A stretch of DNA of 64,000 bases from Catajapyx aquilonaris. Its lineage: Eukaryota. The stretch is from contig JYFJ02001507.1 in assembly GCA_000934665.2 (NCBI GenBank), positions 1-64,000 of the forward strand. Reading direction: 5' to 3'. The notes beneath the pieces are model-generated. The model saw only the letters and a list, made by a program, of their open reading frames with translations. It was not told the DNA's origin and did not search any database. The position numbers were made by a program, and so were the translations under genes. Shown here piece by piece: positions 2,408-48,224 of this stretch. Position 1 is the stretch's first letter. Each line of letters starts with the position of its first letter.

Positions 2408-4273
2408 TCATACCCCATTATCAGCCGGTGGCTCTTTAGGAGGGATATTTTTTGTTTTGACTGGAACTCTTCGTTTCGTTTTTACTGCACTCTTTGGGAT
2501 AGGATAGGAAAGGAAGGAGGCGGCTGTGGCCTATTAGTTTAGGAAACATCTCTGGAAATCTCCTGGAGGAACCGTGGGAAACCACAGAAAACCACGGTTA
2601 GAGTTGCCAGCACCGGGATTCGAACCCAGGACCTCCCGATTAGCAGTCGGATACCATATCCCCTCCGCCACCACTGCTTCGGTTATGAAGTGCAATATAT
2701 CATATGTAATAAAAAATTCCATACAAAAATATTCAGGCACCTCTGGGTTAATTTTCAAACAAGCAAACGAACATACAAACTTTCCTTATGTAAGATTTGT
2801 CATTTTATTGCGGCAAAGGATGCGGTAGTAAACGCTGTATTGTTGCGTCTGTTTGCGGTGCAATTGCCATAAATGTCTATGACAGCTGGTTCCATTGCTT
2901 TTATGGCGACAGATGGTCGGATCTTTGTTGGCGTTCGCTCCTATTGAATAGTGCAATCAGATTGTAGGCAGGTGCGGACACCTGATAAAGAAGCCGACAG
3001 CTTGGCTGTACAGAACAATGGGCAACTAACTCATATTTTGTTGTTACAGTATGGGGTTACGGCATCTTATTCGTGACGCTGATCAGCCTGTGCTCCCTGG
3101 TTGGTGTGAGTGTCCTCCCGTTAATGGGCAAGGACTTCTACCACCAGCTATTGACCGCGCTGGTTGGACTGGCCGTCGGATCGCTCGGAGGCAGTGCCGC
3201 CTTCCACTTAATCCCGCAGGCATTCGGACTCCCAGAAAAGGACACGTCCCATGCCTACTTGGACCAGGCTGCGTTTATGTGGGCCGGAGTTTGGGTCTTC
3301 TTCATTGTGGAACGTGCACTCAAGATCACAATGGACGTGAAGCAGAGAGCGCAAGAGGCTACCTCGTCGCCAAAGACACCGCACCACAAACTGTCCAACG
3401 GGACATTGCCACACACTGAGTCATGCCAGCAGTGTCTCCCACCTGATTCGGAAGTCATTTTTGAGAGCCAGGAACAAGTACGGCTACTCGTGAAAGATGT
3501 AATTGAACTACTGTACTAATTATGACTAAATGTTTCGCAGGTGATCAAGGCATCGTTTGGCCACCAGCAAAAGCCCCGCTGGAGTCACGGAGGTCATGAG
3601 CATGTCGCTAGATGCAGCGTCAGCAGCTCTTCGCCAACTACGCCACCAAAGGACAGTCCGATTGCGGTCGTAGCTTGGATGATCATATTTGGCGACGGTC
3701 TTCACAACTTCATCGACGGACTTTCAATCGGAGCTGCATTTAACCAATCCATTCTAACTGGCGTAAGAGCTTCAAAATTGTTTCGTATTGTGGAAGAAAA
3801 TTTCATGAAGCTCACATTGTTGTGTTGCAGGTGTCGATAAGCGTTGCGGTCATGTGTGAGGAGCTTCCGCATGAGCTTGGCGACTTTGCGGTGCTGCTCA
3901 ACTCGGGGATGCGTATGAGACAAGCGCTTGCGTACAACTTTTTGTCGGCATGCACTTGCTACCTTGGACTCATGCTGGGCATTGTTCTCGGAGAAATAAA
4001 CGCCACGAGCCAATACATATTCGCATTTGCTGGCGGGATGTTCCTGTACATCTCACTCGTGGACATGGTAAGCACATTTGAAGCGTAACCTGCACCAATG
4101 ATTAACTATTATTGTCTCGACAGGTGCCTGAGATGAATGAAGTTGTGGAAGAAGCGAGTAAACTAAGCTGCAAAAAAGCACTCAAAGTTCTTTTCCTTCA
4201 GAACATTGGTCTCTTCATTGGAGTCAGCGTTCTGTACCTGTTGGCTCGGTATCAAGACGAGATCCAGTTCTGA
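1285..4273 (+). CDS. LIV-1 family ZIP metal transporter, SLC39A8/SLC39A14-like (paralog A)
   Basis: Exons 1285-1509, 1567-1723, 3050-3477, 3541-3762, 3831-4067, 4124-4273, all GT-AG and frame-consistent. Shows signal peptide [21 protein letters not shown] (CPALLY motif), [36 protein letters not shown] and FLYISLVDM. Confidence 0.92.
2036..2300 (+). mobile_element. tRNA-derived SINE, family 1, copy 1
   Basis: A-box tggccgagtgg and B-box gagttcgatccc, a GTGGGTTTTCTC...TTTCCTCCC core and a (ccatta) tail. 16-bp TSD atttttagtcattatg at 2020-2035 and 2301-2316. Confidence 0.88.
2341..2684 (-). mobile_element. tRNA-derived SINE, family 2, with (ATT)n tail
   Basis: Reverse-strand tRNA-like head with GGTTCGAATCCC B-box. 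The (AAT)n run at about 2337-2406 is the tail. 13-bp TSD atgaagtgcaata at 2328-2340 and 2685-2697. Confidence 0.85.
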
Positions 4274-9357: not shown

Positions 9358-12300
9358 ATGTGGACGAGGACACTGCTTCTAGTGCGGCTCCTGCTCTTTT
9401 CATTGCTCCCTTGCCTGCTGCTGGCCCACCCTTCCATTGACCAGCTGCTGGACCTCTGGGAGCAATCCTCAGGGGTCAACAGCAGCAGCACGGTCAACCT
9501 CACCTGCTCTGTTGACCTACAGAGAGGTCGCCTCCTACAACAGGGCTGCAACGACACCTTCTGCCAGACATTACGAAAGGTATGTCACATAATGATCTAT
9601 GGTCAAACTTATTCTGGTATGTACTCATTAACAGTACCTCAGGGTCACTTTTTTGTAGAGTGGTTATTATAGTCCTCCGAAGACTAATTACTGATGAGAT
9701 AATGAGCTTCAGACACATCCAGACATGCAGGCGTCTCTCCTTGAAACCCGCGGGAGTTAGGCGATAGAAGTGTCATAGGCTGTATCTGTCACATACATCA
9801 CAACTTAATAACTTATTAATATAATATAAATAATGTAAATATATAAAATAAGCAATATGGGGTGGGCATACACTATTTAACCCACATATGCCCAAAAGGC
9901 CTATATCCTGCCAGGTAGGCTACTCGTAGGGAACATCCTGCGGATTAGACTACCTGTACATTTGTTCATTTAAAACATGGAAAAAAATGAAACAAAAAAA
10001 TTAGCTCATTAATTATTTCGGATTCTGAAGCCGAACATAAAGCGACCGGATTTTGTTTGAATATTTATTGAAACTGTGATTGGCAATGTGCGCAGTTTTT
10101 TTTTTTTTTGCAATCAATATTGTTTTGATTGCAATTTTTTTTAAGTATGAGATATGTACATATGGCTCGTTTTATCACCTAACTATATAGGTACGGAGCT
10201 GTCATGTTTTATTTGTCGCACTACGTGTGAAGCAGCTATGAGACCTTCACTTTACACTCCAACTAAAAATACTATTGCGAAACCCGTTTTACCGCAAACC
10301 TTGCCTTATTATTATTTGCGCGATTCAATCGATTGGAGATATCTCGAACTTGATCGATCAAGTACGAAAAATTTTCTTTTCCGGGTTTGAGGCACACCAG
10401 TTACACCTGTCAAGTAAGCTCCCAAAAAGTGGACAAAAAGAAACGAACAATTCCAATAGAAAAAGGGGCGATATGCATGACATGTAACGAGGCAATTACG
10501 CAATTGTTTTCAAGCTCATTTTCACGTGTAATCTCTAAACGGCTGTCACAAACTGCTGCGTGCAACAAGTGAAGATGCTTACACACACACAAGCTTCCGT
10601 ATTATCGGGTTATCGGCCCAACTTATCTCCTCATGTATCCTGAAAATGTAAGGATCCAAAGTACAGATCATACGTATTGAGAAATACACATGTGCAATAA
10701 AATTTTCGTTTAAAAAAGAAAGGAGTTTGCAATTTCCCCGCACTTGCAGTTAGAGGAAGTTGCTGGAGGCAACAATCTGTAACTCTTCACCTTTTTAAAG
10801 TAATTAATTGCAACAGTTTTTTTTCAATTAATTTTATTGCCACAGCTAACAGTACTGTGAATTGGCAGTGATTCAGAGCTTAAGGTGTAATCTAGTGATT
10901 CATAGAGATTACAGGTGTGTACACGCAACTTTTGCAATTAATTTCACAGCATTAGCTATGGGATTCCACGTAATCACTCGTACGCACTTTTCCTCAATAA
11001 AATTAGTAGGGAATATCCTGCTAGTTAGACTACATTTGTAGGGAATAATCGCGAGTTATACTCGCGTAAGGAATATCCTGCAGGTTATACTACGAGTTAG
11101 ACTACGGTACTTTTGTATGGAACATTCTGCGAGTTAGACTACTTTTGTATATGGAACATTCTGCGAGTTAGACTACTTTTGTTTGGACCATTCTGCGAGT
11201 TAGGCTACTTTTGTATATGGAACATTCTGCGAGTTAGACTACGTTTGTATGGAACATTCTGCGAGTTAGACTACTTTTGTATGGAACATTCTGCGAGTTA
11301 GACTACTTTTGTATGGAACATTCTGCGAGTTAGACTACTTTTGTATGGAACATTCTGCGAGTTAGACTACTTTTGTATGGAACATTCTGCGAGTTAGGCT
11401 ACATGTAGGGAAGATCCTGCAGGTTAGACTACTCTTGTAAGAAATATCCTGTGAGTTAGACTGCTGTTGTAGGGAATATCCTGGGAATTAGACTACTCTT
11501 GTAGGAAATTTCCTGCCAGTTAGACTACTTTTGTAGGGAACATCTGACTAGTTAGACTACTCTTGTAGGTAATATCCTGTGGGTTAGACTACTTTTAAGT
11601 TCAAAATAGATGACAAATTTTTATTCCAAGTGGGACACTTCAAAGTGCAGCTTCCAAAGTGCTTGTTGATTTTAATGTAATGACCTCCCCCTAAAATATT
11701 TAGGTCATTGCTGATACCGACCCAGCACATGATGCGGATGACCCCACCATCTGCCCCCAGTTAGTGGGCACACTTGTCCACCACCTGTGTCTGGTGTCGG
11801 CGACAGAGCATGTCCCATCAGACTGGACAGAACCTGGACAGGTCGTCAAGCCAACTGAGATTGAAGGTACTCAGTAAATTAATTAGAATTTTAGTGCAAG
11901 TAATTAATGTGATGTTGATTTTTGCAGTATGGGGATTTGGACTGCTGTTCGTGACCCTGATCAGCTTGTCCTCGGTCATGGGCGTGGCCTTCTTTCCCAT
12001 CATGAAGAAGGAAGCGTACAAACAAGTCATGAGGTTCTCAATTGGCCTAGCCGTGGGCTCTCTTTCCGCAACAGCTGTCTTCCACCTCATACCTCAGGTA
12101 ATTAACAATCTAACCGCAATGGCACGTGCGGTATGCCGGAAGCTGGGAAAAAAAATAATTGAACTAACCGCATGACACTAAAAAGTAACCACAAATATTA
12201 CGCTCTACTGACCACACAAGGTTGTACATACTCCAACGCTTCACAACAAATGACCGGTAGTTACATTATTTAAATACCCAATCAACATAGTGGAACACTG

Positions 12301-13660
12301 TTGTTGTCAGTAATCTTTTACGACTAGTAATTGAACCTGGTACACAAACACTGCCGGTTTATAGCAGGGTGCAATAAACCAATTTTTCATCCTTGAATAA
12401 CTCTATTTTTATCGGCAGGTCAACCAGGCAATTGCATGGTTAACCGTCACAAAAATATTAATCGCTTTTCTCTATTCGCAAGGCCTTCCACCTTCCGAAG
12501 CAGGATCCAACCCATCGCTACCTCAACACTGCCGCGTTCACATGGCTCAGTTGCTGGCTCGTCTTCTTTCTCGAGTGTGCGATGAAGATCACAGTCCGAA
12601 GCAACAGACAAGTGAGACGATACAGAGCATAATAATAAATCATGAATATATCATAATTGGTCCAACAGGTGGTCGTACGAAAGAGGGAATCGGATGAATC
12701 ACTGCCAGTCAAGAACGGAAATGTGTCTGCCAACAATGAATCCTGCTACGAATCACAGCTAATGCTCGCTGCCTTCGACTCAAAGGTATGGGCTACATAC
12801 AAGTGCTGGCGAACCCAATAACGTTGCCTTATATTTCACAGGAAACTACAAAAGCAAACGGCATTGCAGGTGTTCATCACAATCATCACGGACATCTCGG
12901 TGCGGACAATCCAGAGGAACATGGCATCCGAGCCGTGGCCTGGATGGTCATCTTCGGTGACGGCCTGCATAATTTCGTGGACGGGATGTCCATTGGAGCC
13001 GCATTCGGAGAGAGTATATCCACAGGAGTCGGGATGAGTTTGGCCATCATGTGTGAAGAATTTCCGCATGAGCTAGGTACATTTGGGTCTTGTATTTATC
13101 CTGACTTGTATTCATCCATGTTCTCATTGCAGGCGATTTTGCGATCCTGATCAAATCGGGAATGAGCGTACGTCAAGCCTTGTTCTTCAACTTCCTCTCC
13201 GCATGTTCATGCTATGCAGGACTGGTCGTGGGCGTACTCCTCGGAGAGCTTGAAGGCAGCGTGTACATATTCGCATTTGCTGCCGGACTTTTCCTGTACA
13301 TCAGCCTCGCAGATATGGTGAGTATACACTGGAAAAGTTCAAGCGATATACGACGATAGCACTATTACAATATGGTAATCAATCGATAATCTGCCTAATC
13401 AACTCCAAGGTTCAGGTGCACATGCAATAGCTCACTTGACAATGACCTTGGAAATTCATGCACCATTGACATAATATTCATGAGTCGCTTTTGTGTTTTG
13501 TCTCCAGGTTCCAGAACTCTTGTCGGATGTCCAGGAATCTTCTGCTCGTGGAGGTGCGGCTGGATTCCGTGTGTTTGCACTTCAAAATGCGGGAATACTC
13601 ACGGGAGTTCTCATCCTCTACGTCCTGGCACGTTTCCAGGACCGAATACGCTTCGATTGA
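9358..13660 (+). CDS. LIV-1 family ZIP metal transporter, SLC39A8/SLC39A14-like (paralog B)
   Basis: Exons 9358-9579, 11704-11866, 11928-12097, 12483-12611, 12669-12785, 12842-13076, 13133-13317, 13508-13660. Shows a signal peptide, CPQLV, VWGFG, His-rich loop [31 protein letters not shown] and FLYISLADM. The exon 1-2 link is the least certain. Confidence 0.9.
11005..11596. repeat. 32-bp minisatellite in intron 1 of ZIP paralog B
   Basis: Unit gagttagactacttttgtatggaacattctgc, homogeneous in the centre and diverged at the edges. Related units at about 9900-9955. Confidence 0.95.
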
Positions 13661-14258
13661 CCTCTCCCCACGTCGAGAGAGAAGTTACAAATCGATTTTT
13701 ATTAAGATGGTCATATCCATCAATCTCCTCCTGTCATATTCCGTCCATGGGGACGAGAAGACAAATTGCTCAGTCGCGTTGTGGACTCATACTAGAAAAA
13801 GCAAAGAGACGATTTTTTTTTTTTTTTTGGTCTAAGTTATTGCAAGAAAAGAGACAAAACAAAACCACTTTTTACCTTTCATGTATTTAAAAAAAAAACT
13901 CTGCAAACTTCCTGTAACTATTCTACATAAAATAACTACTTCTAAGTTGTTGTATGTATTATTTTGAGATCGAGGCACAATATCACTAGTGTGGACGGAT
14001 TCGTTTACAGCAAATCACTCTGAGACGACGAAGTGCATGGAACAACGTACAAAGTGACTAGTACTTTTAACACAATGTAAATAGAACAGGTACACACCGC
14101 ATTTCTAATAAGGAAACAAAGGCACAAAGTATGACTAGAAAGTGACGATATGTGTTAAAACGTTACAAGCTCCAAGTTTCTTCTGGTTCATTCGCATCAG
14201 CTGGAATATACTTCAACAAAATAATGCGTCAAAGTGTTAATGATGTCAGGGTCGTGAC

Positions 14259-17200
14259 CTAAGCCTCGCCTGTTTTGATGATCTTGATGAGAGAAGACAC
14301 GTTTTGGTTCTTGATCGCTACCCTGCATGCGTTTATGACGTTGGTCTTGTGCTTTCCAACTGCGGGTGAGAGAAATGAGTGACAGATTCTCACGGTAATT
14401 AGCAAATGGGGAAATGAACACGCTCATTGTGTTACTGTACACATGACATGCAACACCACTTCCATTATAAAATTAGGAAAAATAATTACGGTGCATATCG
14501 GCTCGAGGTGGTAATGCTTTTTATCTGTTTAGATAATACGAAGTACATGACTCACCCCTAAGTCTCCCCGCCTTCTGTACAATCTGATTAATCTGCTTCA
14601 GACATCCAATCAAGTCTTGCTGATTGTTGCTGCTGATCTTGTAGCCGCTGATTAAGTCCTTGTTGATCTCGAACAGTTGGGTGTACCATTTACGCATGCT
14701 CTTCCTTTATTGAAACGTTAGAAGCGTAAACATTGAATAGTTCAACCGCAGACGAAACCTTATCTTACATGTCATCCAGCAAACGCGAATCTTCCGCTCG
14801 GACCACCAGGCTCCGGATAAGTCCGGAATTATCCGCCATCTCAGCAGTAAGTTTCTGCCGAACGCTCTGAAGGTCCCGCATCCTCTCCAGCAGCTCTTCT
14901 ATCTTCTGAGTCTCCTTGGGAAAACTAGCTTCCACCTGCAGCTCATCAATGTTGAGAAAAAGGGACAACGACTGGATGAGATCTCCTACGAGGTCCATGT
15001 CGTTACTGCCGATGGTCATTTGGCCACCGGTGTCCATGTTGAGACTCAGCTCTTCGTTTGTACGAAGGGAGAGGAAGGTCACGCTGAACCCGCCCTTCAC
15101 CTCCAAGTCGGACATCAGAAGGAAGTTTTGGTTGATCCACATCGATATCTGAAATAAGAGAATGCAATCATATAGTGGCAAATGTGCTCACAGAAGCGTA
15201 CTAACCCGTTGAACTCGCTCGTGAATTTGAAACTTGACGTATCCCTCCGTTTCCTGCGCTGGAGCCATGCATACTGCATACATGGAGAATCTCGGGAGCT
15301 GTCTTGTGAGCTCGAAGACATGAAAGTGCTGGCTCCCCTTATACCCGACTAATGCCTTAACGTGAAGGTCAACAGGGACGTCCTTGGGCGGAAAAATGGG
15401 GACGTTGAGGCTGCTGGACAACTGGGTCTCCTTCGGATGGACAACGTGACACTCCCCTTCAAATATGCCTTCAGCAAAAATCAGAATTGCTTTCAGCGCC
15501 GTGTCGTTTGTGGTCGACAGAGCAATTTCGACATGTGGCTGCAAATAAAGTCATTTAGTACGTGTAAACAGAAAGCTTACATACAACCAGATCTTACCCG
15601 CAAGTCCTCGCTACCCATGTTGATTGCCAGGCCAGTCTGCAATTGCGTCTGAGCCTGAAACAATCATTTCGCATGTGAAAATCATCGTCGTACTTTACAA
15701 TTTTCAGAAAGGTGAAGCGGTACTGACTGGAATTACTCCAACTCCTTGGTAATCAGCATCGTTGCCCTGTGACCTCAACTTGGCATTCTCCTCGTAGTTC
15801 TTAAGCTCCAAGAGTAGGTTCTGCTTCTTGTGGCTCAGGTCACGGATGGCCTCTTGCTCCAGACTGGACTCCATCATCCCTCGCCTCATTTCCTGCGAGC
15901 CCGGTTGGTATCCGCGAACTGACAAAAAATAAATCAGAACCTTTAGTCTAACTGTACGTCTTTAAAAAAAACAAAACAATGGGCTAACCTTCTCCTTCAA
16001 TGGAGCAGCAGATAAGCTCCATCTTCCCATTCAGCCTGTAGTCCGCTTCGGTGATTCCTGCTATTGCGTGAGGAAAGTTGTCCTTGAACACCACCTCTCC
16101 TGTCCGATCATTCCTGGCGTCCACCTTCCCGTTGCTCCAGCCTGTTATTAGCTCTTTCACACCATCACCGTCCAGGTCGAAACTGTGTATCGTCATAGCC
16201 TGGTTCTTTGACTGAAATTAATCCAAAAGCGACATGTTGCGATACAACTAACGAAGACTGCATAGCATTCAGCACGCACCTCCATAAAATATCTTGAAAT
16301 AAAAACCTTCATTTTCCGACCATTAGATGTATTTCAGTTTGCATTACAACTTATTCAAAATATTACCATTTACTTGCCAATCATCGGGTCTGTACCAAAT
16401 ATACATCAAGTGTAGGCACTTAATTCCTTTCATTACACAACGGCAGAGGGAAATATAATGGCTCACACCTTTACCTCGAATTACCCAAGAAGAGATTAAT
16501 GTGACGAAAATTAACGGATCAGAAACTGTTACGCAACAAAAGGTTGCAAAAATACTGCTTTCAATTGTCCACAGTAATACAAAAAGGTTCAGAAAAACAC
16601 TTAATGACACTGTTACATTTCTCATCATCACAAATTTCCGGAATAAACTGATTGCATGTTTTAAATTTACACCAGCATTACCATGATTAACATGCATTAG
16701 TGAAGCTCTCGCAATCAGCCGTGAAAGAAACAAATCCTGAGTAATAATCAAAACGTAGTTATTAATCCAATTACAGCTCTGACAAATTTTTTAAACTTCT
16801 TTGCATTGATCATTGCTTAATAGCCGAGGCCTGGCAATCAGACCTTCCCCTCGGGATGCCTCTCAACCAACATGGCTATAGCTTGACCTCCAGCAGCACA
16901 TGCGGTGATGAGAGCCAACTGCCCGTCCTCCCTGATGAGCCGGTTTGAAGCATGGCAAGTCAGCCTCACACCTGTCGCGGCGAAGGGATGCCCGATGCTC
17001 AGGGAGCCGCCCCAGAGGTTGAATTTGTCAAGCGGTGGTCTTCCAACCTTGGCCGGACGCTTCATGTACTCCTTACCAAACCAATCGGAATCCATTGCCT
17101 TCAAGTTAGCCAGGATCTGGCCTGCAAATGCCTCGTGGACTTCCCACACATCGATGTCGTTGACGGTGAGGCCGAGGCGATCCAGCAGTTTTCCTGTGGC

Positions 17201-20200
17201 ATATGCGGGTCCCAGCAGCAACTGATCCTTGGGATCTTGCGATACATACACAAAGTCTCGCAAGTATGACTTTGGACGCAATCCTAGCTCCTTTGCCCTC
17301 TCTTCTGTGGTGACGATGCAGGCGGAGGCACCATCAGTTAAGAACGATGCGTTGGCAGCCGTGATGGTGCCGTATGGCTTCACAAACGCAGGCCGCAGCT
17401 TCCCAAGCTGATCCATCGTTGAAACACGGATTCCGTTATCCTTTGTAACAGGCTGGTCTACTCCGGGTACTTTAAACGGCATGACATCAGACAGCCATCC
17501 CTTGTCTTGTGCCTGCTGGGCCAGCGTGTGTGACCGCAGGGCATATTCATCCTGCTCCTTGCGTGTCAGCTCAAACGCTGCGGCCAACCGATCTGCCGAG
17601 TGCCCCATGGTCTCTCCGGTGCTGAACTCCGCCACTGCTGGCAACTCTGGCATAAACGTCTTGGGCCGCAGTTGCGATATCAGCTGGAGCCGCTGCACCA
17701 TGCTCTTGGCTCTGTTAGCCCGCAACATCAGCGACCGCATCTGACGCGAGAAGCGAATGGGCACGTCCGACATGAACTCCACCCCGCCTGCAACACACAG
17801 GTCGTACGTCCCAGTAGCCAGCAGCCCCATCGAAGTGGTGATCGCCTGATTGGAACTAATGCAAGCCTGGGTCACCGTATGGGCTGGAGTGTGCTCGGAA
17901 AAACCAGCTCCAAGAGCAGCCTCACGACCTGCAACATAAGCCAACAGTCAGAATGCTTAAGATCTGTTTATCTCGCTTGTCATTTGCCCTGCATTACCCA
18001 CCGATATTGCTTGTCTTGACCTCCTGGATGACCGTCCCATACACGATGTAGTCCACCGACTCTTTGGGCAGGCCAGTCTTCTTGAGGAGGGCGATGAGCG
18101 ACTCCCTGGCCAGGTCGTGGGGCATGAGCCTGTTGTAGTCAGTCCCCGACTGCAGGAAGGGGGTTCGAACCCCATCGATGAACACCAGGTTCTTCGGCCC
18201 CTTCAACTTCGGGGCCTGTCTTGGGGGAGCTGCCAATCCAGGGGTGGTGGACAGGGACCTCACCCACACCCCGGTCGCCAAGGCGGGGAAGGAAAAGGAC
18301 TTGGACAGGCAGACGGAAGCCATCTTCGGATTGATTTTGATGATGTTTGATGACGATGGCTGCCCTTTTGGAATATTCGGTCGGAACAGGGAGGGCCGAA
18401 TCGCGCGTAGCAGTTCTGAACCGGAAACCTTACCGGAAATGTAGCTGTTGCACGACCGATTTATTTCGAACGAGAATTCGCTTTTTAAAAGGCAGGGTTG
18501 GGTATAATAAGGGTGCAGAATTTTTCGTAGCATGTACAATTGTCGGAACTGGTCGGTACACACCCCCCTGTACACTCGCACGGTCATTCATAGCACATTA
18601 CGCACGCAACTAATATAAATAGCGGCTACTTCATAATAGCGGCTACTCACAAGGGGGGTCACAGGGTACAGTACTTTTCAAATGTACAGTACACTGCAAA
18701 TAGTATGTACGGAATTTATAAAATAATGGCCACATTGTGTGCACAAATAATATTAATTGTACGGTTAATTTAAATTTGCACGTAACCAATAATTGCAATT
18801 ACAGTTTATTTAATTTTGGATTAATTGCGTTTAAATTAATTTTAATTATTTTAACATGCTAATTTATTTTCATTAATTATAGCATTATATTTTAATGCTA
18901 ATTAAGTTGAACTGGTTTACTTTAATTTGGATTAGTTGTGTTTAAATTCATTTAAATTATTTTAACGCAATCATTTATTTACATTAATTACAACATTTTG
19001 AATTATATTAATTGATTTAAGCTATTTTACTGTAATTTTTAATCATTTAGTTTAAATTTATTTTAATTATTTTAACATGCTAATTTATTCTCATTCATTA
19101 TATCACATTAATGCTAATTAATTTCAGCTTTTTTACTTTAATTTTTATGAAATGAATTGCATTTACTTTATTTTTAACTGATTATAGCACATTAATTTAA
19201 ATACACCTAATTACACCATTTGTGATTTTCATTATTTATAACATGTCATGAAGTTGATGATTATTATTATTGATAATGATAACATTTGAATTTCAATTAA
19301 TGATAGCATATTAATTTCAATTAATGATAGCATATTAATTTCAATTAATGATAGCATATTAATTTCAATCAAATAAAAACAACACGTGCACAAGTAATTC
19401 TAATCCAGTTATTATAGTATTTGATTAATCATTTAAATTATTTATAACAATTACTAATTACAGCATTTGTGATTTTTATTTTATTTGTAACATGTCATGA
19501 AGTTGATGATTATATTTATAGCATATTAATTTAAATTAATTGCAGCATATTAATTTAAATTAATTGTAGCATATTAATTTAAATTAATTATAGCATATTA
19601 ATTTAAATAAAATCAATGTAACAATTGTACAAGTAATTCTAATCAATTAGAGAATGTGATTTGTCATTTAAATTATTTATAACAATGTAAATTTGATTAA
19701 TTGCAGCTATTTTAACTAATTATTTATAATAATTTTAATGTGATTTTAATGACATGGCCATAGAGTAGGCCTAAAGCAAAAATCATGCATCACTTACAGT
19801 TAGAAGAGCAATAATTATTGATTGTGTCAATTAATGTAACTGCCTCAAATAAATAATGCACAAAATTCCCCTGATATAAATGCCTGATGGTGTCGAAGCA
19901 ATATTTTTACATGACCGTGTGCAATTGTTGCAGGCTTACCTTGATCCGCCACCACCTGGAAATCTTCTCGTAGACGCCCACAGTCCCGTTTGCCAGGGCG
20001 TAACCAAACCGTCCGCCTTCCATCGGGGTAAGGCCTGTCACAGCCTCGGTTTCAGTCAATTCGTTGACAATGTTGTCCTCCTTGAACACTCGTATGTTGA
20101 AATCCTCTGAGCCAACCACCAACTGCAAGGTTTTCGAATTAGTCTGGCGCCTTGTACGTCCAGGGCGACATATTACCTCGTTCTCTCCATCTCCATCAAA

Positions 20201-20890
20201 GTCAGTGAGAGTGAGCGACCTCACATTGTCCCCACCGACACTCCAGAAGGGGTCGTTTCCAGACATATCGAAGCCATGAATTGCACAGTTGCCTCCGACA
20301 ATGGCTAAGGGCTTCGGAAAACTTCCCAAGCTTCCCACCGTCACCACGTTAACACCAGCCGCAACCTTTCAAATAATATTGCATATTTATAAAGGGTAAA
20401 GCTGTATGTTGAAGGCTTGTTACCTCCTTATAGAACAAATCGCTGTTGTTTTCCACATCAAATGCGAGGAGATTTGTGTGCGTTCCGACTACGAGCGTGT
20501 CCCTGTCCACTGAGGGATCAAGCTGTCCAGCAGCCAATGCGCTAATGGAATGGTTGATGTTGAGAAAGAAGAGATCCTGCGAGATGCTGCTGGTCACCAA
20601 CATTCCTCCCATGCTACCCATGCGACGGTGCGGATTGTGAACAAACACCTGCGGATCAAAGTCAAATTATTTGTCCATATTTACAGGGCTTGTAATGTTT
20701 GGTTAGTAGGACATGTTAGGCTAGATAAGGTTAGGTTAGGTAGCGTTGTAAGTAACAAAATGCAATAAATTTCAACCTTGTCACCAGTCGTGGCTGCTGT
20801 GATACACGGGTGATACCCATCGTACTTGGCGACCGTCACCCTTCCAGGAAGAATCTTTTGCTGGAAATTCAGCGTGAAAATCGGCAGCAT
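14259..20890 (-). CDS. BBS2: Bardet-Biedl syndrome 2 protein (BBSome subunit)
   Basis: Exons 20777-20890, 20424-20648, 20177-20365, 19940-20122, 15989-16211, 15728-15918, 15598-15654, 15206-15538, 14769-15148, 14556-14704, 14259-14359. Recognised by [71 protein letters not shown] and [10 protein letters not shown]. Confidence 0.95.
16838..18323 (-). CDS. HADHB: Mitochondrial trifunctional enzyme subunit beta (3-ketoacyl-CoA thiolase)
   Basis: Exons 18002-18323 and 16838-17928. Shows a mitochondrial presequence, [41 protein letters not shown] (catalytic Cys), [16 protein letters not shown] and CAAGG. Confidence 0.96.
18750..19750. repeat. AT-rich low-complexity block with approximately 24-bp tandem units
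   Basis: atttcaattaatgatagcatatta x3 at about 19290-19370 and similar units at about 19520-19610. Confidence 0.75.
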
Positions 20891-21335
20891 TTTCCAGCAA
20901 ATTGTCCAGAAAATTAATAATTCGAACACTTCGCACGAAAGTGGTTTCTCTCCTGTTTTGTTTACACGCTCCAGCTTCCAGGCTGCCTTACACCTATATG
21001 GTTTCTCTCCTATTTATACGTTCCAGCATGCATATAATCCACCCAATCATGATTCAGTATCCAGCAGTTTAAGCCAATCAGCGGTGTAATGAGGTACTAA
21101 AATGTAAATGGTTTCTCTCCAATATGCGTTTACACGTTCCAGTCTGCCCGAAAACTCAAATGGTTTCTCCCCTGTATGTTTACACGTTCCATAACGCGAG
21201 GAGTCAAACCAATCAGCATTCATTATCCAAGCGTTTAAGCCAATCAGTGCTTGGCATGTCCTACATGTTGGACAACATTTGGCAACGTTGCCAATTAATT
21301 CATTACAAAGTACTTGCGGTGTGTACGTGCCTGCC
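20891..21335. promoter_or_regulatory. Putative bidirectional promoter of BBS2 and MTG1 with duplicated CCAAT modules
   Basis: 445 bp between divergent ATGs. CCAAT at 21043, 21074, 21119, 21209, 21240. TGGTTTCTC motif at 20942, 20999, 21109, 21161. Confidence 0.6.
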
Positions 21336-23091
21336 ATGTGCTCAGCATGGAAAAATTTGGTCCAAATACCGAATAAGTTCACCCCAAAATTCACTGCCAA
21401 AATTCAGTGGTATCCAGGACACATGGACACAGGTATGTATGCAGTGTAATAAGCAAGTGTATGAAAGCAAAGTGTATGAAACATGGGCACATGCGTATGA
21501 AATGTATGAAATGTGTATGAAAGCAAGTGAAAACATGCGCATGAAATATATGAAAACACGTTATGAAACATATGGAAGGTATATGAACTGTATGAAAAGT
21601 GTGTATGTAACATGTATGAAGCAAGTGTATGAAAAGTATGAAACAAGTGTAAGAAGCATGTGTGAAGAGTATGCAACAAGTGTATTAATCATATTAACCA
21701 AAAGTACTAATCCCAATTATCCTGCAGGTATAAAGAAGATGCAGGCAAAGCTCAAGAGTGTGGACTGCATAGTTGAAGTGCATGATGCTCGAATATCCTT
21801 TTAAATATTCAATCATTATTTTTGGCTAAACAATCAGCAAGTACATGCGATTAGTCCTTAGCGATACGCACATACCATTCTCAGGCAGAAACAGGCGGTT
21901 CAAGCACCTTTTGACTGCTGCAAAGCCGCACGTCCTGCTGTTGAACAAGATGGATTTGACGGACCGCCGGATGATGGAGGATGTTAAGCAGACTATAATG
22001 AGCGAAGAAAGTGTGTCCGAAGTGATTTACACTAATTGTAAGAACCAGAAGTGCATAGGGCTCAAAAAGGTAATGTGCTGCACACACCGTGTGGTTGTAA
22101 TTGCAACGGTTCAATTTTACAGGTCGTGCCAACTGTAATAGATATGATACAAGCATCGGACAGGTACCACCGCAATGAGGTGAAGGAATACTGCCTGATG
22201 GTCATAGGAGTACCGAATGTCGGCAAGTCATCCTTCATTAACATCCTGCGGAGTACGCATCTTCGTAGAGGTTTGTTTCACTTTCATTGGAACCTGAGCA
22301 ATTTGTAAATTTTAAATACATTGCGATGAAAATTGAATGTGTTGTTTCCAGGAAAAGCGGCGCATGTCGGTGCAATCGCAGGGATTACCAGGAGCGTCCA
22401 GGAGAAGATCAAGATCAGCGAGGATCCTCCTATTTATCTGCTGGACACACCGGGAATATTGGATCCCTCGATTAAGAATTACGAAGCGGGCATGAAGCTG
22501 GCGCTGTGTGGTACGCATTAATTTCAATTGCTAGTAACTCACACGTCCATGTAAAGTACAGCAACCTCGCAGCTTATGCTAAGTACCGGTACCATAAACT
22601 GCAAACAAAACTCAGGGTATTACGATGTATTTTTATTTTGTTTCCACTAATTGTGGTTTTTATGCAAATCATATGTAATTTACCTTCAGCGAGTTTCCCA
22701 GACCATTTAATTGGAGAGGAGGCAATGAGCGATTACCTTCTGTACTACCTCAACAAGCATGAGAATTACAGGTAATTAATTGTGTCCATTACAGATGAAA
22801 CATGTCATTTATTTTTAGATAGTAACGAAGTGAATGTTTGGACCATTCGCTCTATTATTTTTTTGCAGGTATGTTGAACACTTGGGTTTGGAGGAACCGT
22901 CAGTCAATATACTGGAGGTTCTTGTGAAGTGTTGCCTGAAGAATAACATGACCATCAAACGGCGTGATCCACGTGGCGAAGTTGCGAGAAGGCCCAACCT
23001 TGTAGCAGCAGCATCGCTTTTTATACGCGGCTTTCGAGAAGGCATGTATGGGCCGATGTTGCTGGACTCAGAAATCGTCCAGAAGAGTTAA
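21336..23091 (+). CDS. MTG1: Mitochondrial ribosome-associated GTPase 1 (YlqF/RbgA family)
   Basis: Exons 21336-21432, 21728-21792, 21872-22069, 22123-22270, 22352-22510, 22690-22771, 22869-23091. Shows WYPGHM, EVHDARIPFSGRN, NKMD (G4), GVPNVGKSS (G1) and LLDTPGI (G3), in the circularly permuted order. Confidence 0.93.
21433..21690. repeat. Degenerate (gtatgaa)-type simple repeat in MTG1 intron 1
   Basis: Recurrent gtatgaaa / gcaagtgtatgaa units. Confidence 0.8.
21793..21871 (+). other. U12-type (minor spliceosome) AT-AC intron
   Basis: 5' site ATATCCTTT, branch-like TCCTTAGC about 10 nt before the terminal AC. Removal joins HDAR|IPFSGRN in frame. Confidence 0.9.
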
Positions 23092-23135
23092 TAAAACATA
23101 GTTCACAAGTCCTGTTTTATGCTTCACCACACTGA

Positions 23136-26100
23136 TTAGAGCCAATCTTGCTTGATCATGTCGGCACCTTTCTCTGCAATCATGGTCACGGCAGCCATTA
23201 TGTTCGCACTGGGTATCGAAGGTATTACAGATGCATCGATAACACGCAACCCATTAACACCACGCACTCGTAATCTCGGGTCGAGAACTGCCATTGCATC
23301 ACTGTCATTCCCCATTTTGGCTGTACCGCAAAAATGAAACTCTGTCAACGTGTATTCGCGCAAGTGGCACTCCCAATATTCATCAGTCGTCATATCGAAT
23401 TGACGACATGCCGGAAATGGGATTGGCCACAGCGTCGAATTAACAATTTTGAATGAATCGGACTGGCCAAACTTAAGTGCTGTCTTGGCTGCCTCGATCA
23501 GTACTTTAATGTCATCTGGTTCACTCAGGTAATTGGCATGGAACACCGGGTGGCTCTCTGGGTTGCGATCTTTTAATGTCATGTACCCGCTACTCTTTGG
23601 CCTCATTATTGTCGCTAGTACCATCCAAGCATCACGATTAACCAACGGAGCATACACACTTTTCCACAATTCGTTTGAGATCCGATGCGCACGTCGTAAC
23701 CCCCCATAATCCGCCGCAACCGACCCGGCCGCAAATGTCAGTTGCACATCCGGAGAATCTTCCTGATCCGCGTACTTAGTCCGCACAAACGCCTGACCTT
23801 CAACCCCTCCCGGTATTGTAAAAGGACCTTCCCGTGTCATACCCCACAGCAGCAAATCTCCCGCATTGTACTTATTGACATTCCACGACACAGGACTGCT
23901 GATTGCAAATGTTATCCCTCCGACGCTTATGTGATCTTGCAAGTTACGTCCGACACCTTGAAGACTTGCAAGTACCGGTATTTCTAGTTCATTCAATGCT
24001 TGTGCCGGACCGATACCTGAGAGCATCAGCAACTTCGGCGATGCAAGTGCTCCTGCGCTCAGTATAACCTCACGTCGTGCCCTTGCTTCAGACATAGCCA
24101 AACCTCGTCTGAAACGCACACCAACAGCTCGTCCCCTTCTATCAAACACAATCCGATGCACCATTGCTTTTAAAGCCACATGTAAATTCCGTCTGTGTCT
24201 TACGGGCTGTAAGAAAGCCCGGTTATGACTGCACCGTTCGCCATTTCGGACTGTCAATTGCGGCTTCATAACCCCAGTCTGCCGCTCGCCGTTAACATCC
24301 ACTTCGGGATACCCCAACTCAATTCCAGCGTCCAGGAAGAGGCGGGAGAGCGGTGTCTCCCATTTGTTCTGCTGCACTGGAAGATATCCGCCTGTTCCGT
24401 GATGCCGTCTGTCTTGAGCGTACCTGCAACAGACAATCAGCCATTGACCGACCATCGTATGATATGCGAGAGAGTATACCTTTTATCCCGGTTGTCCTCC
24501 GATTTCCTAAAGTACTGCAGCACATCTTCGTAGCTCCATCCGACGTTCCCGACCGCTGCCCATCCGTCGTAGTCTCTCCGGTTTCCTCGTATGTACTGCA
24601 TGTAGTTTAACAGCGAGCTTCCACCGAGCCCCTTTCCTTGTGTCCATCCGCATCGCCCGGCAGTCATGCCTCGGCAGAAGGATGGGTCGGCTTCTGGGAG
24701 ATATCCCCAGTCGTACTGTGGGGTGCCGACCAGCAACGAAGGCAGGGCAGGCACCTGTCCGATAATTGATTCCTCTCCGCCTGCTTCTAACAGTAGGACA
24801 GTCCAGTTGGACACTTCGCTCAGGCGATTAGCTACGACACATCCTGCAGTACCTGCGATGACATTTTCTAATTAGTACAGTGCACCATCATTTGTCCAAC
24901 ACATATTGAAAAATTAAGCATTATTCTCACCTACACATGTCTAATTAGTAAATTGCAACATTTTTCCCCCCCAAAATGCAAGAAGTGCTGGACAATTAAC
25001 CATTGTTTTCGTTCACATACATGTCTAATTATAGTCAATTGCACCCAAAAAAAACTTACAAATTATGGAAAATTTAAGTGTTTTTTTTTCAGCCACACAT
25101 CAACTTTTTATCCGAAAAATGATGGAAAATTAAGCATGATTTTTCTCACCTACGCTTGCTAATTAGTAAATTGTAATCCATGTTTTTTTTATTTACCAAA
25201 GCAGCGTTTTGTTCACCGGCGTGACTAATTAGTAAGTTGCAACATTTTTAGCACTATTTTTCCAATAATGCTGGAAAATTGAGCATAATAATTGTTCACT
25301 CCTAAACATGTCTAATTATAGCAAATTCCAATGTATTTTTTCAAAAACGCTGGAAAATTATGCGTAATTAATTGTTCACATCTACACTTATCTTGATCTT
25401 AAAATTATCTTAATAATAATTGCAGGTGTAAATTGCAACATTTTTTTTTCTCCAAAATACAAGAAGTGCTGGAAAATGAAATAATTTTTCACCTACACAT
25501 GTCTAATTAGTAAACTGCAACTTTTTTTCCGGAAATGCTGGAAAATTAAGTGCAATTGTTCACACCTTCATATGTCTAATTAGTAAATTGCAGCATTTAA
25601 TTTTTCAAACTGCTGGAAAATTAAGCTTAATTTTTCTCAACATGCATGTCTAATTAGATTGCAACATTTTTTTCTTCTCCTAAACACAAAAAAGTGATGG
25701 TAAATTAAACTAAATTTTTCCCACCTTCAGTATACAGTACTTTAAAATTTAAATGGAACGTCCATTGTTCTGAGATGCACCTTTCTTCACCTGTGAAAAA
25801 ATTGCAATAATCTTGCAATCTTATCTTTTGGCAAAAAAAAAAACTATTGACCTTCACTTTTTTTTTGGTTTGCATTGTTTCAGCAAAACATAAGAGCATA
25901 TTGTATGCATATTGGGTATTAATAAAGAGAATTCTTTCTGGCGAACTAATTTCCACTCGTTATACCTGCATTACCGGTATAATGAATGTAAGGTATGCCA
26001 AGTTCCTTTTTGTTGTAGGTATAACCGGTCATGAACATGACCTGTACCGTCACTTTCTCTTCCAGTACTTGAATTTATCGGAATTATTATTTCAGTCCCC

Positions 26101-36500: not shown

Positions 36501-39353
36501 AGCTTCATACTGTCCACCTGGTTCGAGAGGATGTGGGCCACGTTGTTGTCCTGCAAGTCCCCGTCTCCCCCTCTTATCACCATCGTCTCGTCTCCAACTA
36601 ACGAGTTGTTGTTGGGCTGATGGGCCTGCTTTCGCCTTATGCTGTAGATGGCGAATTTGGAAGGGCAGTGGATCTCCCCGTGACCGAGCTGGGCGCGAAG
36701 CAGGTCGCCTTGAAGCCACAGGTACGACTGCTTGCTGTGGATAAAGCAGATTAATTAGTACGCACACTTAGAACTCTCTTCATTTAATTTTTCTACTACA
36801 AACCTGTTGCTCTTGATCGTTCACCATTGTGTTAAAAAAATCACACAACACTTACTCTTCCAGCCACTGCTGCTGGTGGCCGATGATGGACCCGGGGCGG
36901 CATATCCTTATCCAAGCGATGGCCTCCCTGGCCGTGAACCGATGGTGTTTCATTATATAGCACGCTATTAGGCTTCCCGTACGGCCTAGTCCAGCTTAAA
37001 ATGGAAAAAGATATTCTTCCAAATGCCTTTCAAAATTCCAACCCTATCCGCTCACTGATGTAGCTGACCTTTGCAATGTATGGCAATGCTTCCCGAGGCT
37101 TTCTCCGAAATGTCGAGGAACTGCCTCATGATGGCGTCGCTCGGAGTGCTTCCGTCAATGAAGAAGAGGTCCTTGTGCTCGAAGCCAGCGTTCACAAACC
37201 GGTTGGCATCGTAGATCTTCTTGTTCAGGCGCACCACAGTCGTAATGTTGTTCTTGCAGAAATAGGAAAAGTACGCCTCTGGAGCATGAAGGTGGTAGCC
37301 TGCGGGAAATGAATCACATCAGTACTTCACGTCTTCCAGTTATTTAACGGAAATCAATGTGGGCTGTACATAAACGTGGTCGTTTGACAATTTATCCATA
37401 AATTCAACTGCACCCAAAACTAATGAACGACAAGACTTCTTGGTTAGAACGCACAAGCTGAAGATAAAATCTAAGAAAATTATTACCATTCTCGATCTTG
37501 GTCTTGGGATGTGGCCCGCAGAAAGCGATGAACTTATCCGGCATTATCCAGTTGAAGTCACCATTTTCAACTCTCTGGAGGAAAAGCAACATGATATTTA
37601 AAAGTGTGTACCATTGCTAATAGTAATTTTACTTTTCGTAGTTTTCGAGATGAATTATTCTCAATATGGCTTCATTGAAATTAGTTACGTAAATCAATAT
37701 TCTTACCTCATAGTATTCGTACTCATCCACATCAAAGTCCTCGAAATTGAAGAAGCCAAGTGTGAAGGCCTTGTAGATCGCATGGAGGCAATCCGAGAGC
37801 GAGATATGGTAGACAGACATCCCAAACGATGCATCCCTGAAGAAGGGGGGGGGGAAATGCACAGTTCCCGCCCCAGAGGGGAGGGCATCAAATTCTCTAT
37901 CGACACTGACCTGAATTGAAGGAAGGGCGGATTGGATGATCCCAGCAGTATCCGATATGATTCCTCAGGCGTTTTCTTCAAGTATATGATCTACAAAACA
38001 AAAACAAAATGTCACAAAACATTCTGATATAAAAATTAACAATTCCAAGCTTACAGCGTATGCACTTATGAGGAAAGCTGCATTGGCTCTTTTCTGCGCG
38101 TCCATCGTGGTGTAATGGACAATTTTCTTCCGCGCCAAGGAATATGACTGGGAAGAGAAAAAAAATACATTCACACATTCAACCAGGTAACCACAAACTG
38201 AAACACGTATCGTTCAAATCAGTAAAACTTCACTCTCTTCATGCATTGCACAAAGCTAACATAATTCCCTTTGCAGCACTGCAATTACTTTCTACCATCG
38301 TCTAAATCAGAAAAATGTACGCATAATCACATCGTCTACATTTGAAAAACGTACGCATAATCACATCGTCTAAGTTTGAAAAACGTACACAAAATCACAT
38401 CGTCTAAATCAGAAAATGTACGCATAATCACCTTTAATTTCTTGTTAAGCTTCTGACAGTAACGATACAGCATTGCCAAGTTAAGAGGGCCGAAATCGGC
38501 GTAGAAGTTTTCATACACCAGCTCATCGTCCACGCTGAAGTAGTGGGTGTTCGGTGTGGACTTGGGCTTCACGGTGGTACGGAGGGTTACAAAGTAGAGC
38601 CGTTCTGAAAGGGAAGACGCACGTCATTTCTCATTGCACAACTGCAAATAAAAGGGATGTACCAGCGAAACAGGCATATGTGACGCCCATATCTACATTC
38701 TTGAGGATCCGCAGGTGATACCATAAATGTGCAAAGCAGTGGTAATTCAGGCGGAATAAAAGTCTCATCCGCTCAAGTACTCATAAACTCAACGTTGTAT
38801 AAATGTATAAAGTGGCATAAAAATATTACTCCCCCAGCAACTGATCGTGCAGAATACTTAGCAAAATAAAATCCAGGATGATCACAAATAAGATGCGTAT
38901 GAGTTCAGTCTCCTTTCCCTCTATACAAATTAAATCATTAAACATAATTATGTATCCATGACTTCCATCGTTAACCATGGCAACACAGAAATTCTAGTTT
39001 ATTTCACGACTTTGAAGCACCGTGTATGCTATTGCATCAACCGGCATCGTAATTTTAATTTATTGCAAAGTTGTGGTCTCCGAGACGTTCAAATTACCTA
39101 TTTTTGAAGTATGCTATAAATTGGGCAAAAAAAAAAAAACTTTGATGTAATAATTAGCGCCCGTACCTTTAATGAATTCTGATGCGCAGACCAAAATGTC
39201 GTTATTATCCTCCATGGCTCCGATCTTCTTCTGGCGTTGCTGTTTCTCAGTGGGACTTACAATCTGAATGATCCCTTTTGACGGCAACCAGCAACCTTTG
39301 GGCAGTTGATTTCTGTTTTTGTTCGGCCTCGTGCTGGTCACGACCTGGCTCAT
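33501..39353 (-). CDS. CDC14: Dual-specificity phosphatase CDC14
   Basis: Exons 39167-39353 (or ATG at 39215), 38432-38604, 38055-38147, 37911-37990, 37707-37836, 37487-37574, 37069-37299, 36856-36994, about 36315-36734, 35968-36156, 34956-35234, 33501-33549. Shows [28 protein letters not shown] and catalytic HCKAGLGRT. The 3' exons are less certain. Confidence 0.93.
38295..38430. repeat. Approximately 33-bp tandem repeat x4 abutting a CDC14 splice donor
   Basis: catcgtctaaatcagaaaatgtacgcataatca units. Confidence 0.8.
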
Positions 39354-46672: not shown

Positions 46673-47809
46673 TCAGTGCTGCGATCCCAAAGCATAGTTG
46701 AGAAGAGTCATGAACATAAATCCAACGAACATGAACAACACCTTGACCATCCGGCTCTTCCCATCAACAAACTCTTCAGGGATCAGCTCCATAAAAGTTA
46801 CGTACACGAACACACCTGCCGCAACACCTTGCAGCAACCCGGACACCAACATACCCGTGGCTCCAGGTGCACTTCCCAAACCGATACCAATCAACCCTCC
46901 GATCGGTATGGTAACAGTGAAGGCCAACACATACCTGCAACCTTTCCACACACCCATCCCCAGCTTAGAGGTGCTTACACCCATCGCTAGAGCAACCAGC
47001 GCTTCATGTAGCAGCACAGCCAGGAAGAGACGTAGTGCACGAGTCTCCTCACGCTGAAGTCCTAGTGCAACACCTTCCAGCAGTGAATGGACACTCACAG
47101 CAAGTAACAACAAGACAAACTGAAGGCCGGTCGTGTGGCCCAGAAGGTCTGCCACTTGCGAGTGGCTGTGATGGTGTTTCTGAGGCTGGAAGATCGGGCT
47201 GGGTGGGATGGCCGCATTCCCATTTAGATGGCCAGCTTGAAAAAGCAATCATTAGTTAGTTAATGTACGTGGAAAAGAGATTGACAATGCATTACCTGGA
47301 ACTGTGCTTCCAGTCTTCACCGCACAGCAATCTCCATCCTCAACAATGGGCAGCTCTTCCTCCACATCCTCCTCCTCCTCCAGCAGCTCCTCCTTCTCCT
47401 CGTCCACCCCTTCCCCTTTCCTCCTCATCAAGTCCACCTCCACCCTCTCGCCTTCCCTCCGCCTCCCTTCCTTGCATCCCAACACTCCTTGCTCCAGGGC
47501 CAGTATGGCAAAGAAGCCCAGGACCAAAGACATCTCCGCCAAGGGCATGTCCGCCGCGAAGCTTCCACCAAATGCGGTAACAGCCTCCTCGAACTTGTGC
47601 CTGGAGAAAGGAAGTAGGCCCAAGAAGCAGACGCCCACGAATACTCCAGCTGCCACGCAATTGCAGAAGGAGAGGACGCGGGAGGCAAAGTCACTAAGTT
47701 GGGAGGACCCACGGCGGTGCACCAGGATCACCGGTATCACCCCACAGAGGGTTGTCACCGAGAATATTGTCACCAAGCATGATAACTGAAGCGCAACGAT
47801 GTTCATCAT
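46673..47809 (-). CDS. ZIP subfamily II zinc transporter (SLC39A1/2/3-like)
   Basis: Exons 47296-47809 and 46673-47235. Shows NCVAAGVFVGVCFLGLLP, PLAE, HHHSHS loop, SVHSLLEGVALG, LLHEALVA and GVAAGVFVYVTFMEL. Upstream splice acceptor at 47840. Confidence 0.93.
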
Positions 47810-48224
47810 GAGTAGATGCTTCCAGCAATGGTGCTAAGCCTGGAAAAGATTACAATGTAAATTTTCCAGCACAATACTTGGATGTTACCATATTTCAAGC
47901 ACGATTCCCTCAATTTTAATTACTGTCCACTGCATTCATGTACACATTCAATGAGCACATTTCAGATACTTGTCAATGTATTAACACATGTATTAATCCC
48001 GATTAATCCTGCCTTTCCTATCAGTGACACCTCAAAGATTATGAAGTCACACTTGATACATTTGAACTTTGTATTTAGAAAGCTATAAAGGTGTAATACC
48101 TAGGCACTTACATATTTAGTTCATGAGCTAGTTTTTCATTTGCTCATGAAATAATATTTTAAAAAATTAAACAAAAAATAATTCGGCCACATCTGGGTTA
48201 ACACGTACTAAGCTGTATTATTAA

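Follow-up and report, generated by a model that had tools for sequence, protein, structure and literature searches.

How can a gene carry a second, complete gene on its own strand inside one of its introns, and still be expressed as a whole? This question is raised by a 64,000-nucleotide (nt) stretch of the Catajapyx aquilonaris genome (contig JYFJ02001507.1 of assembly GCA_000934665.2, positions 1 to 64,000; hereafter the window), in which an earlier note, made from the sequence alone, had placed HADHB, a gene for a mitochondrial enzyme of fat breakdown, within a 3.7-kilobase (kb) intron of the cilia gene BBS2 (BBSome subunit 2). Intron-nested genes were first described in Drosophila in 1986, and have since been catalogued by the hundred in genome-wide studies of human, mouse and fly. 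We find that the locus is very probably an ordinary same-strand host/nested pair, with an intact HADHB lying in intron 4 of an intact BBS2 in a compact, pancrustacean-like arthropod genome. Since two complete, conserved genes are involved, the nesting is not a chance pattern.

Results

BBS2 continues across a 3.7-kb intron

We modelled BBS2 by requiring GT..AG introns that keep the reading frame open, by maximizing similarity to P0121, a full-length crustacean BBS2 of 725 amino acids (aa), and by imposing three introns seen in RNA contigs (below). The resulting 11-exon model (Table 1) has no internal stop, shows GT..AG boundaries in 10 of 10 introns, and is 63% identical to P0121 (458 identities in a 725-column global alignment). 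In tblastn searches P0121 is collinear with the DNA on both sides of intron 4, its residues 2-238 corresponding to 20890-19940 and its residues 227-725 to 16247-14262, and P0123 is likewise collinear with BBS2 over its full length. A Pfam scan, which skipped the N-terminal exons that align to P0121 residues 2-238, identified BBS2_Mid, BBS2_GAE, BBS2_pf and BBS2_hp in the scanned exons, and a 119-aa piece of the protein finds its nearest matches in malacostracan crustaceans, at 69-75% identity.

The earlier note had read BBS2 from RWWRIK at 19940 directly into SKNQA at 16211, and collinearity with P0121, the BBS2_Mid domain and the choice of splice sites all uphold this reading. Positions 11-74 of the BBS2_Mid profile fall on exon 4 and positions 76-108 on exon 5, indicating a single domain divided by intron 4; the best BBS2 splice choice over the nested unit is 19940/16211; and the donor at 19940 is close to consensus. 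By this reasoning from sequence, 19940/16211 is the predicted exon 4-5 junction. The ten introns measure, in order, 128, 58, 54, 3728, 70, 73, 59, 57, 64 and 196 nt, so that the earlier estimate of about 55-200 nt for all introns but the fourth agrees with the measured range of 54-196 nt, and intron 4 is 19 to 69 times the length of the other nine. Intron 4 owes this length to the complete same-strand gene nested inside it: it is made up of 1559 nt upstream of the RNA contig that represents HADHB, the 2065-nt span of that contig, and 104 nt downstream. Subtracting the gene and the repeats described below would leave a few hundred nucleotides, much closer to the lengths of the other introns.

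HADHB has a spliced transcript of its own

RNA evidence came from one public run, X1 (its kind is not on record), whose Logan contigs were matched to positions 13500-21500. Of the words sampled from 15900-20400, 41% are present in X1, and six X1 records lie on 13500-21500, each at least 99% alike. Four joints within these records skip 64, 59, 73 and 73 nt and are bounded by CT..AC when read on the plus strand, equivalent to GT..AG in the minus-strand sense; from these boundaries we infer that the contigs derive from spliced RNA. BBS2 introns 15727-15655, 15597-15539 and 14768-14705 are spliced out in X1 contigs, and BBS2 exons 6-10 lie under such spliced contigs. X1 has no cover at 14301-14567, 15903-16169 and 18573-21242, where BBS2 exons 1-5 and an AT-rich block in intron 4 fall, and these gaps carry no information on the expression or the assembly of the parts concerned; contig limits are likewise not to be equated with RNA ends, and contig depth cannot rank genes.

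The record that represents HADHB (record 5; 1992 nt, more than 99% alike) matches 18380-18000 and 17926-16316 (joint 17926/18000, cut +2), and the 73 nt that it skips are exactly the predicted HADHB intron. It overlaps no BBS2 exon and has no loose end, and a spliced record free of BBS2 exons indicates that HADHB is transcribed and spliced as a unit of its own. The record differs from the window at three sites, of which two are synonymous (codons 79 and 95) and one lies in the 3' untranslated region (UTR). Its span of 18380-16316 falls wholly within BBS2 intron 4, with HADHB and BBS2 both on the minus strand. The gene model, the Pfam domains and the spliced contig thus confirm what the earlier note had described as an intact two-exon HADHB (16838-18323) on the host's strand.

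The identity of the nested gene is clear from its protein. Thiolase_N is found in both exons and Thiolase_C in exon 2. Residues 1-358 of the 362 aa encoded by exon 2 align with residues 100-456 of the human mitochondrial trifunctional protein (MTP) beta subunit (6dv2_A; E 1e-166) with a single one-residue gap, and the two proteins are identical in the stretches ACIS, HEAF, GHPF and CAAGGQ, which we take to hold the active-site Cys/His/Cys catalytic residues. The nearest matches of exon 2 are arthropod trifunctional-enzyme beta subunits, at 76-77% identity over 362 aa (Odonata, Hemiptera), and crustacean beta subunits are 72-74% identical. Neither HADHB nor BBS2 brought up a nearer relative, and we take their matches to indicate a pancrustacean arthropod. 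Judged by these similarities, HADHB is the predicted orthologue of the mitochondrial trifunctional protein beta subunit, a 3-ketoacyl-CoA thiolase. With many Ser, Thr, Arg and Ala residues and no acidic one before about residue 60, its N-terminus looks like a mitochondrial presequence. The GC content at third codon positions is similar in HADHB (0.686) and BBS2 (0.642), and HADHB is therefore not compositionally odd within its host.

Two sequence patterns stand upstream of the HADHB contig. The heptamer TTTCCGG occurs twice on the minus strand (18439-18433 and 18427-18421), with the copies 12 nt apart and 41-59 nt upstream of the contig start, and about 240 nt upstream of the contig there is a 13-nt direct repeat (18647-18635 and 18630-18618, minus strand), whose two copies are 17 nt apart. 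Both are possible promoter elements.

Within the HADHB 3' UTR, a stop-free frame of 148 codons runs on the minus strand from 16790 to 16347, a length reached in none of 2000 mononucleotide shuffles and in one of 2000 dinucleotide shuffles. The frame has no Pfam match at E<=1, and Atlas gave no usable match (recognition 1053). Its sole HMMER match, P0338, is a translated tandem repeat that reaches E 2e-22 by way of 14 near-identical units, one unit alone scoring 28.9 bits at 25% identity. The GC content of the frame is flat across codon positions (0.36/0.35/0.33, versus 0.58/0.46/0.69 in HADHB). Given this flat composition, the lack of Pfam and Atlas matches and the repeat-driven HMMER match, we rejected the frame as a gene; it is probably not one, and its length is unexplained.

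Processing signals that the host transcript must pass

In the 626 nt between the HADHB stop codon and the BBS2 acceptor (16837-16212), neither AATAAA nor ATTAAA occurs on the minus strand. Our scan thus agrees with the earlier note both on the absence of AATAAA and on the placement of the variants AGTAAA and AATACA; these are not the only variants there, as the note had held, since AATAAG, AATAAC and two copies of AATGAA are also present (Table 1). The last base of the HADHB contig, 16316, lies 12-17 nt past AATACA and leaves 104 nt to the BBS2 acceptor; beyond it, at about 16306-16297, the sequence is rich in T. The position of the contig end fits AATACA as the poly(A) signal of HADHB and hints at its use.

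Further signals lie upstream of HADHB, where intron 4 contains the hexamers AATAAA and ATTAAA nine times each on the minus strand. Eight of the nine AATAAA and all nine ATTAAA fall within a tandem-repeat block of about 0.9 kb with a GC content of about 0.24, and the BBS2 pre-mRNA must ignore these as well. The 239-nt unit of this block contains internal arrays of four 24-nt units. A blastn search (E<=1e-5) found no further copy of the repeats in the window, and we accordingly rejected the block as a dispersed repeat.

The BBS2 intron 4 acceptor is partly complementary to the AT-rich units, for instance at 16204-16222 versus 19358-19376 (19 nt, 89%). Pairing the acceptor region (16195-16260) with the repeats (18740-19830) on the minus strand gives a duplex energy of -31.5, compared with a shuffle mean of -24.2 (standard deviation 2.8), and one of 100 shuffles is as low. 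We rejected this pairing as a special feature, since stronger pairing (-35.8) is obtained with one of the nine acceptor regions elsewhere in BBS2. No known RNA families were found in 13000-22000.

We propose that HADHB would be transcribed from an upstream region of its own, carry a single intron of 73 nt and finish at a 3' end of its own, and that transcription of BBS2 would take the polymerase across the AT-rich repeats and the entire HADHB unit. The strong exon 4 donor, AAG/GTAAGC, would then be joined to the exon 5 acceptor 3.7 kb on, and the HADHB splice and poly(A) signals would leave with the excised intron. The non-canonical hexamers of HADHB (AATACA, with AGTAAA and AATAAG nearby) may make premature 3'-end formation of BBS2 less likely, aiding read-through as the earlier note had suggested. 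U1 'telescripting' is known to suppress intronic polyadenylation sites in long pre-mRNAs, and such suppression by the U1 small nuclear ribonucleoprotein (snRNP) could contribute here. Mis-joining of BBS2 exon 4 to HADHB exon 2 is out of frame and meets a stop after 18 codons, and mis-joining of HADHB exon 1 to BBS2 exon 5 is out of frame with a stop after 15 codons, so neither would yield a full-length fusion protein.

Origin of the nesting

As a proxy for gene position, we compared the sizes of the contigs listed for the HADHB protein and for the BBS2 protein of the same species, in the ten arthropods present in both listings. The two genes lie on differently sized contigs in nine of the ten, comprising the insects Hetaerina americana, Periplaneta americana, Anabrus simplex, Gryllus longicercus and Diploptera punctata and the crustaceans Homarus americanus, Trinorchestia longiramus, Meganyctiphanes norvegica and Amphibalanus amphitrite. 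The sole agreement is in the barnacle Pollicipes pollicipes, in which P0273 (HADHB) and P0151 (BBS2) are both on a contig of 47,363,072 bases. Judged by this proxy, the nesting seems not to be a general arthropod feature, and HADHB seems to have moved in the lineage of C. aquilonaris.

A metagenome scan with HADHB exon 2 as the query found 191 relatives, of which 80 loci were kept. Their top segment identity is at most 74%, meaning that no close relative is among them, and most of the loci measure about 1.4-2.7 kb, as expected of cDNA, and are uninformative on gene order. We left out L023, L067 and L071, whose overlapping matches resemble frame errors. The match is unbroken over the HADHB intron position in 74 of 75 single-match loci. 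Intron positions came from two genomic loci, whose proteins are 66-71% identical to HADHB: L022 (467-1987) has one intron of 177 nt at about residue 360, L033 (44-1727) has one of 364 nt at about residue 73, and neither has an intron at codons 107/108.

HADHB was most likely relocated into the BBS2 intron in this organism's lineage, and it bears no sign of retroposition. The earlier note had suggested that the gene may be relocated or retro-derived; the first term gains indirect support from the nine species, and the second is not supported, because the gene has a spliced 73-nt intron and there is neither an A-run after the contig end at 16316 nor a pair of direct repeats flanking the HADHB unit (each of the ten direct-repeat families of 16150-20000 is confined to the AT-rich block).

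Alternative explanations

Several points weigh against this account. The exon 4-5 junction follows from sequence logic alone, X1 covering neither flank; the start and the poly(A) site of HADHB are not fixed by the contig limits; and the assembly of 16212-16315 and 18381-19939 has no independent bridging from HADHB to the BBS2 exons. As to origin, the contig-size comparison is a proxy that takes only the longest contig per protein cluster, and one protein, P0025 of Periplaneta, is on two contigs; and the comparison draws on distantly related species, at 63-77% protein identity. One alternative is that insertion of HADHB broke BBS2, leaving exons 1-4 and 5-11 unjoined, either in a split or decaying gene or with most transcripts ending at the HADHB 3' end. 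The host must indeed pass a same-strand acceptor at 17929 and then a 3' end that is in use, which together could act as a terminal exon, and the exon 4-5 junction is not seen in X1, which lacks cover there. However, all 11 BBS2 exons are open, with canonical splice sites and a full-length match to crustacean BBS2 at 63%, spliced contigs lie over exons 6-10, and the donor at 19940 matches the consensus well, so we regard a broken host as highly improbable. In a related scheme, which we think very unlikely, the HADHB exon 2 acceptor and 3' end would serve as an alternative terminal exon in which a sizeable share of BBS2 transcripts end. Such transcripts would encode a truncated BBS2 of 238 aa followed by 18 out-of-frame residues, the full-length protein would arise only where 3'-end formation of HADHB is suppressed, and a cilia gene would in that case be gated by a housekeeping gene of metabolism. 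An assembly artefact would instead have joined the HADHB segment into the BBS2 intron, for example at the tandem repeats of 18803-19686, which are of a kind that confuses assemblers, and no independent data bridge the joins. Against this, a false join on the 3' side must fall inside the 104 nt of non-repetitive sequence between the HADHB contig and exon 5, and the halves of BBS2 fit exactly without the insert, in phase and in domain, so that the artefact must be a clean insertion and not a scaffold join; we give it only the slimmest chance.

With an intact same-strand pair as our preferred reading, there are two alternatives to recent relocation as its origin. HADHB could have arrived in the BBS2 intron as a processed retrocopy, replacing or supplementing the parental gene, and have acquired its one intron afterwards. 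The gene is intron-poor (one 73-nt intron in 1413 nt of coding sequence), and by the contig-size proxy it is away from its place in nine of ten arthropods. In human, HADHB stands head to head with HADHA; in the window, a scan of 217 open frames of at least 75 aa (113 + 104) outside the already annotated region gave no HADHA-type domain. An old insertion could also have lost its poly(A) remnant and target-site duplications. Yet the HADHB intron is real and spliced where a fresh retrocopy has none, the hallmarks named above are missing, and a surviving intron close to the 5' end also fits a model of gradual, 3'-biased intron loss. Moreover, L022 and L033 each have a single intron at another position, so intron-poor HADHB genes with differing introns arise with no need for retroposition; a retrocopy therefore seems unlikely to us. 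The nesting could instead be old, ancestral to a wider crustacean group and lost elsewhere, as the equally sized contig in P. pollicipes might suggest. The other nine species differ, however, including three malacostracans and another barnacle, and two genes would share a chromosome-sized contig by chance in roughly one pair in ten to twenty (a rough estimate based on chromosome number). We consider an ancestral nesting distinctly unlikely.

Surrounding genes

The window has short introns and closely packed genes, several of which, three ZIP zinc-transporter genes among them, were recognized by Pfam (Table 1). Downstream of BBS2, an X1 contig ending at 13945 covers the apparent last exon of a plus-strand ZIP transporter gene, spliced from upstream of 13507, and about 50 nt away another X1 contig, 13996-14254, lies just downstream of the BBS2 stop; two convergent 3' ends apparently lie very close together within 13507-14254. 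On the other side, BBS2 has a divergent plus-strand neighbour at 20891-23100, in which an X1 contig exon ends at 21436 and is spliced on to sequence matching about 21745. Open reading frames at 21830-22521 (plus strand) carry GTPase-like motifs and presumably belong to a protein resembling a mitochondrial ribosome-associated GTPase; the scanned pieces of this neighbour match no Pfam family at E<=1e-5. In its presumed first intron, a tandem repeat yields a low-complexity frame of 243 codons (21073-21801).

Table 1. Coordinates of the host gene, the nested gene, associated signals and other genes in the window
Feature	Position	Strand	Remarks
BBS2 coding region	20890-14259	minus	11 exons, 714 aa, complete
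BBS2 exons 1-3	20890-20777, 20648-20424, 20365-20177	minus	splice model
BBS2 exon 4	20122-19940	minus	ends ...RWWRIK; donor AAG/GTAAGC
BBS2 intron 4	19939-16212	minus	3728 nt, GTAAGC...TTTCAG, phase 0
AT-rich tandem-repeat block	18803-19686		110-nt unit x2.9 (18803-19123); 239-nt unit x2.0 (19207-19686)
Presumed HADHB promoter region	18750-18381	minus	about 370 nt of ordinary sequence directly upstream of RNA contig start
HADHB coding sequence	ATG 18323 to stop TGA 16840-16838	minus	two exons, 470 aa, 1413 nt
HADHB exon 1 (RNA-covered)	18380-18002	minus	at least 57 nt 5' UTR; coding 18323-18002
HADHB intron	18001-17929	minus	73 nt, GTGGGT...TTGCAG, phase 1, between codons 107/108
HADHB exon 2	17928-16316	minus	coding to stop, then 522 nt 3' UTR to contig end
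AATAAC	16763-16758	minus	hexamer variant
AATGAA (two copies)	16434-16429, 16313-16308	minus	hexamer variant
AGTAAA	16374-16369	minus	hexamer variant
AATAAG	16355-16350	minus	hexamer variant
AATACA	16333-16328	minus	candidate poly(A) signal variant
Gap from HADHB contig end to BBS2 exon 5 acceptor	16315-16212	minus	104 nt; holds intron 4 3' splice-site region
BBS2 exon 5	16211-15989	minus	begins SKNQAMTIH...
BBS2 exons 6-8	15918-15728, 15654-15598, 15538-15206	minus	splice model
BBS2 exons 9-11	15148-14769, 14704-14556, 14359-14259	minus	stop TAG 14261-14259 within exon 11
ZIP zinc-transporter gene	2989-4085	plus	Pfam Zip
ZIP zinc-transporter gene	11765-13356	plus	Pfam Zip
GMC oxidoreductase	23139-24871	minus	Pfam
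Dual-specificity phosphatase with DSPn domain	37055-38623	minus	Pfam
ZIP zinc-transporter gene	46676-47833	minus	Pfam Zip
CXXC zinc-binding protein	50656-50883	plus	Pfam
MYG1 exonuclease	51526-52839	minus	Pfam

Discussion

The HADHB/BBS2 pair resembles known host/nested pairs in that a complete protein-coding gene sits in one intron of an unrelated gene, and that this intron is far longer than the others. It differs from them in its compact setting, with the other host introns at 54-196 nt and the nested contig ending 104 nt before the host acceptor. According to PMC11694760, the introns that house nested genes are long and preferentially near the 5' end of the host, and mouse and human show a 'slight bias' to opposite orientation, with the orientations 'broadly similar'. 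PMC3192792 cites 752 fly nested genes that were studied, and puts the share of human nested genes lying opposite to their host at about 63%. The bias toward antisense nesting that the earlier note invoked thus exists but is mild, and its weight was overstated: with about 37% of human nested genes on the host's strand, these figures make same-strand nesting common and not exceptional. We found no discussion of HADHB nested in BBS2 in print, where the papers naming both genes appear, by their titles and the beginnings of their abstracts, to be gene lists or clinical work.

Three further comparisons place the two genes among known systems. With human HADHB (MTP beta; PDB 6dv2, 5zqz) the nested gene shares Thiolase_N, Thiolase_C and a collinear exon 2, but it has two exons in place of the 16 of the human gene. 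Like processed retrogenes in introns, it is an intron-poor housekeeping gene inside an intron of an unrelated gene; unlike them, it has a spliced intron and lacks an A-tract and a target-site duplication. As in intronic polyadenylation, a same-strand 3'-end signal within an intron must be ignored during transcription of the host; the difference is that the signal here is that of a working nested gene, which also makes use of it.

Since host/nested pairs of both orientations are numerous in annotated animal genomes, the locus touches no open question. The pair is a further instance of a well-known arrangement, neat through its compactness and not surprising. For annotation, the lesson is that gene callers meeting a 3.7-kb intron among short ones should neither break BBS2 in two nor merge it with HADHB. 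For the biology of nested genes, the locus offers a compact natural setting in which to study how the pre-mRNA of a host passes over a nested gene on its own strand: within 3.7 kb lie a strong host donor, a nested acceptor that is used, a non-canonical nested 3' end, and the host's own acceptor 104 nt further on.

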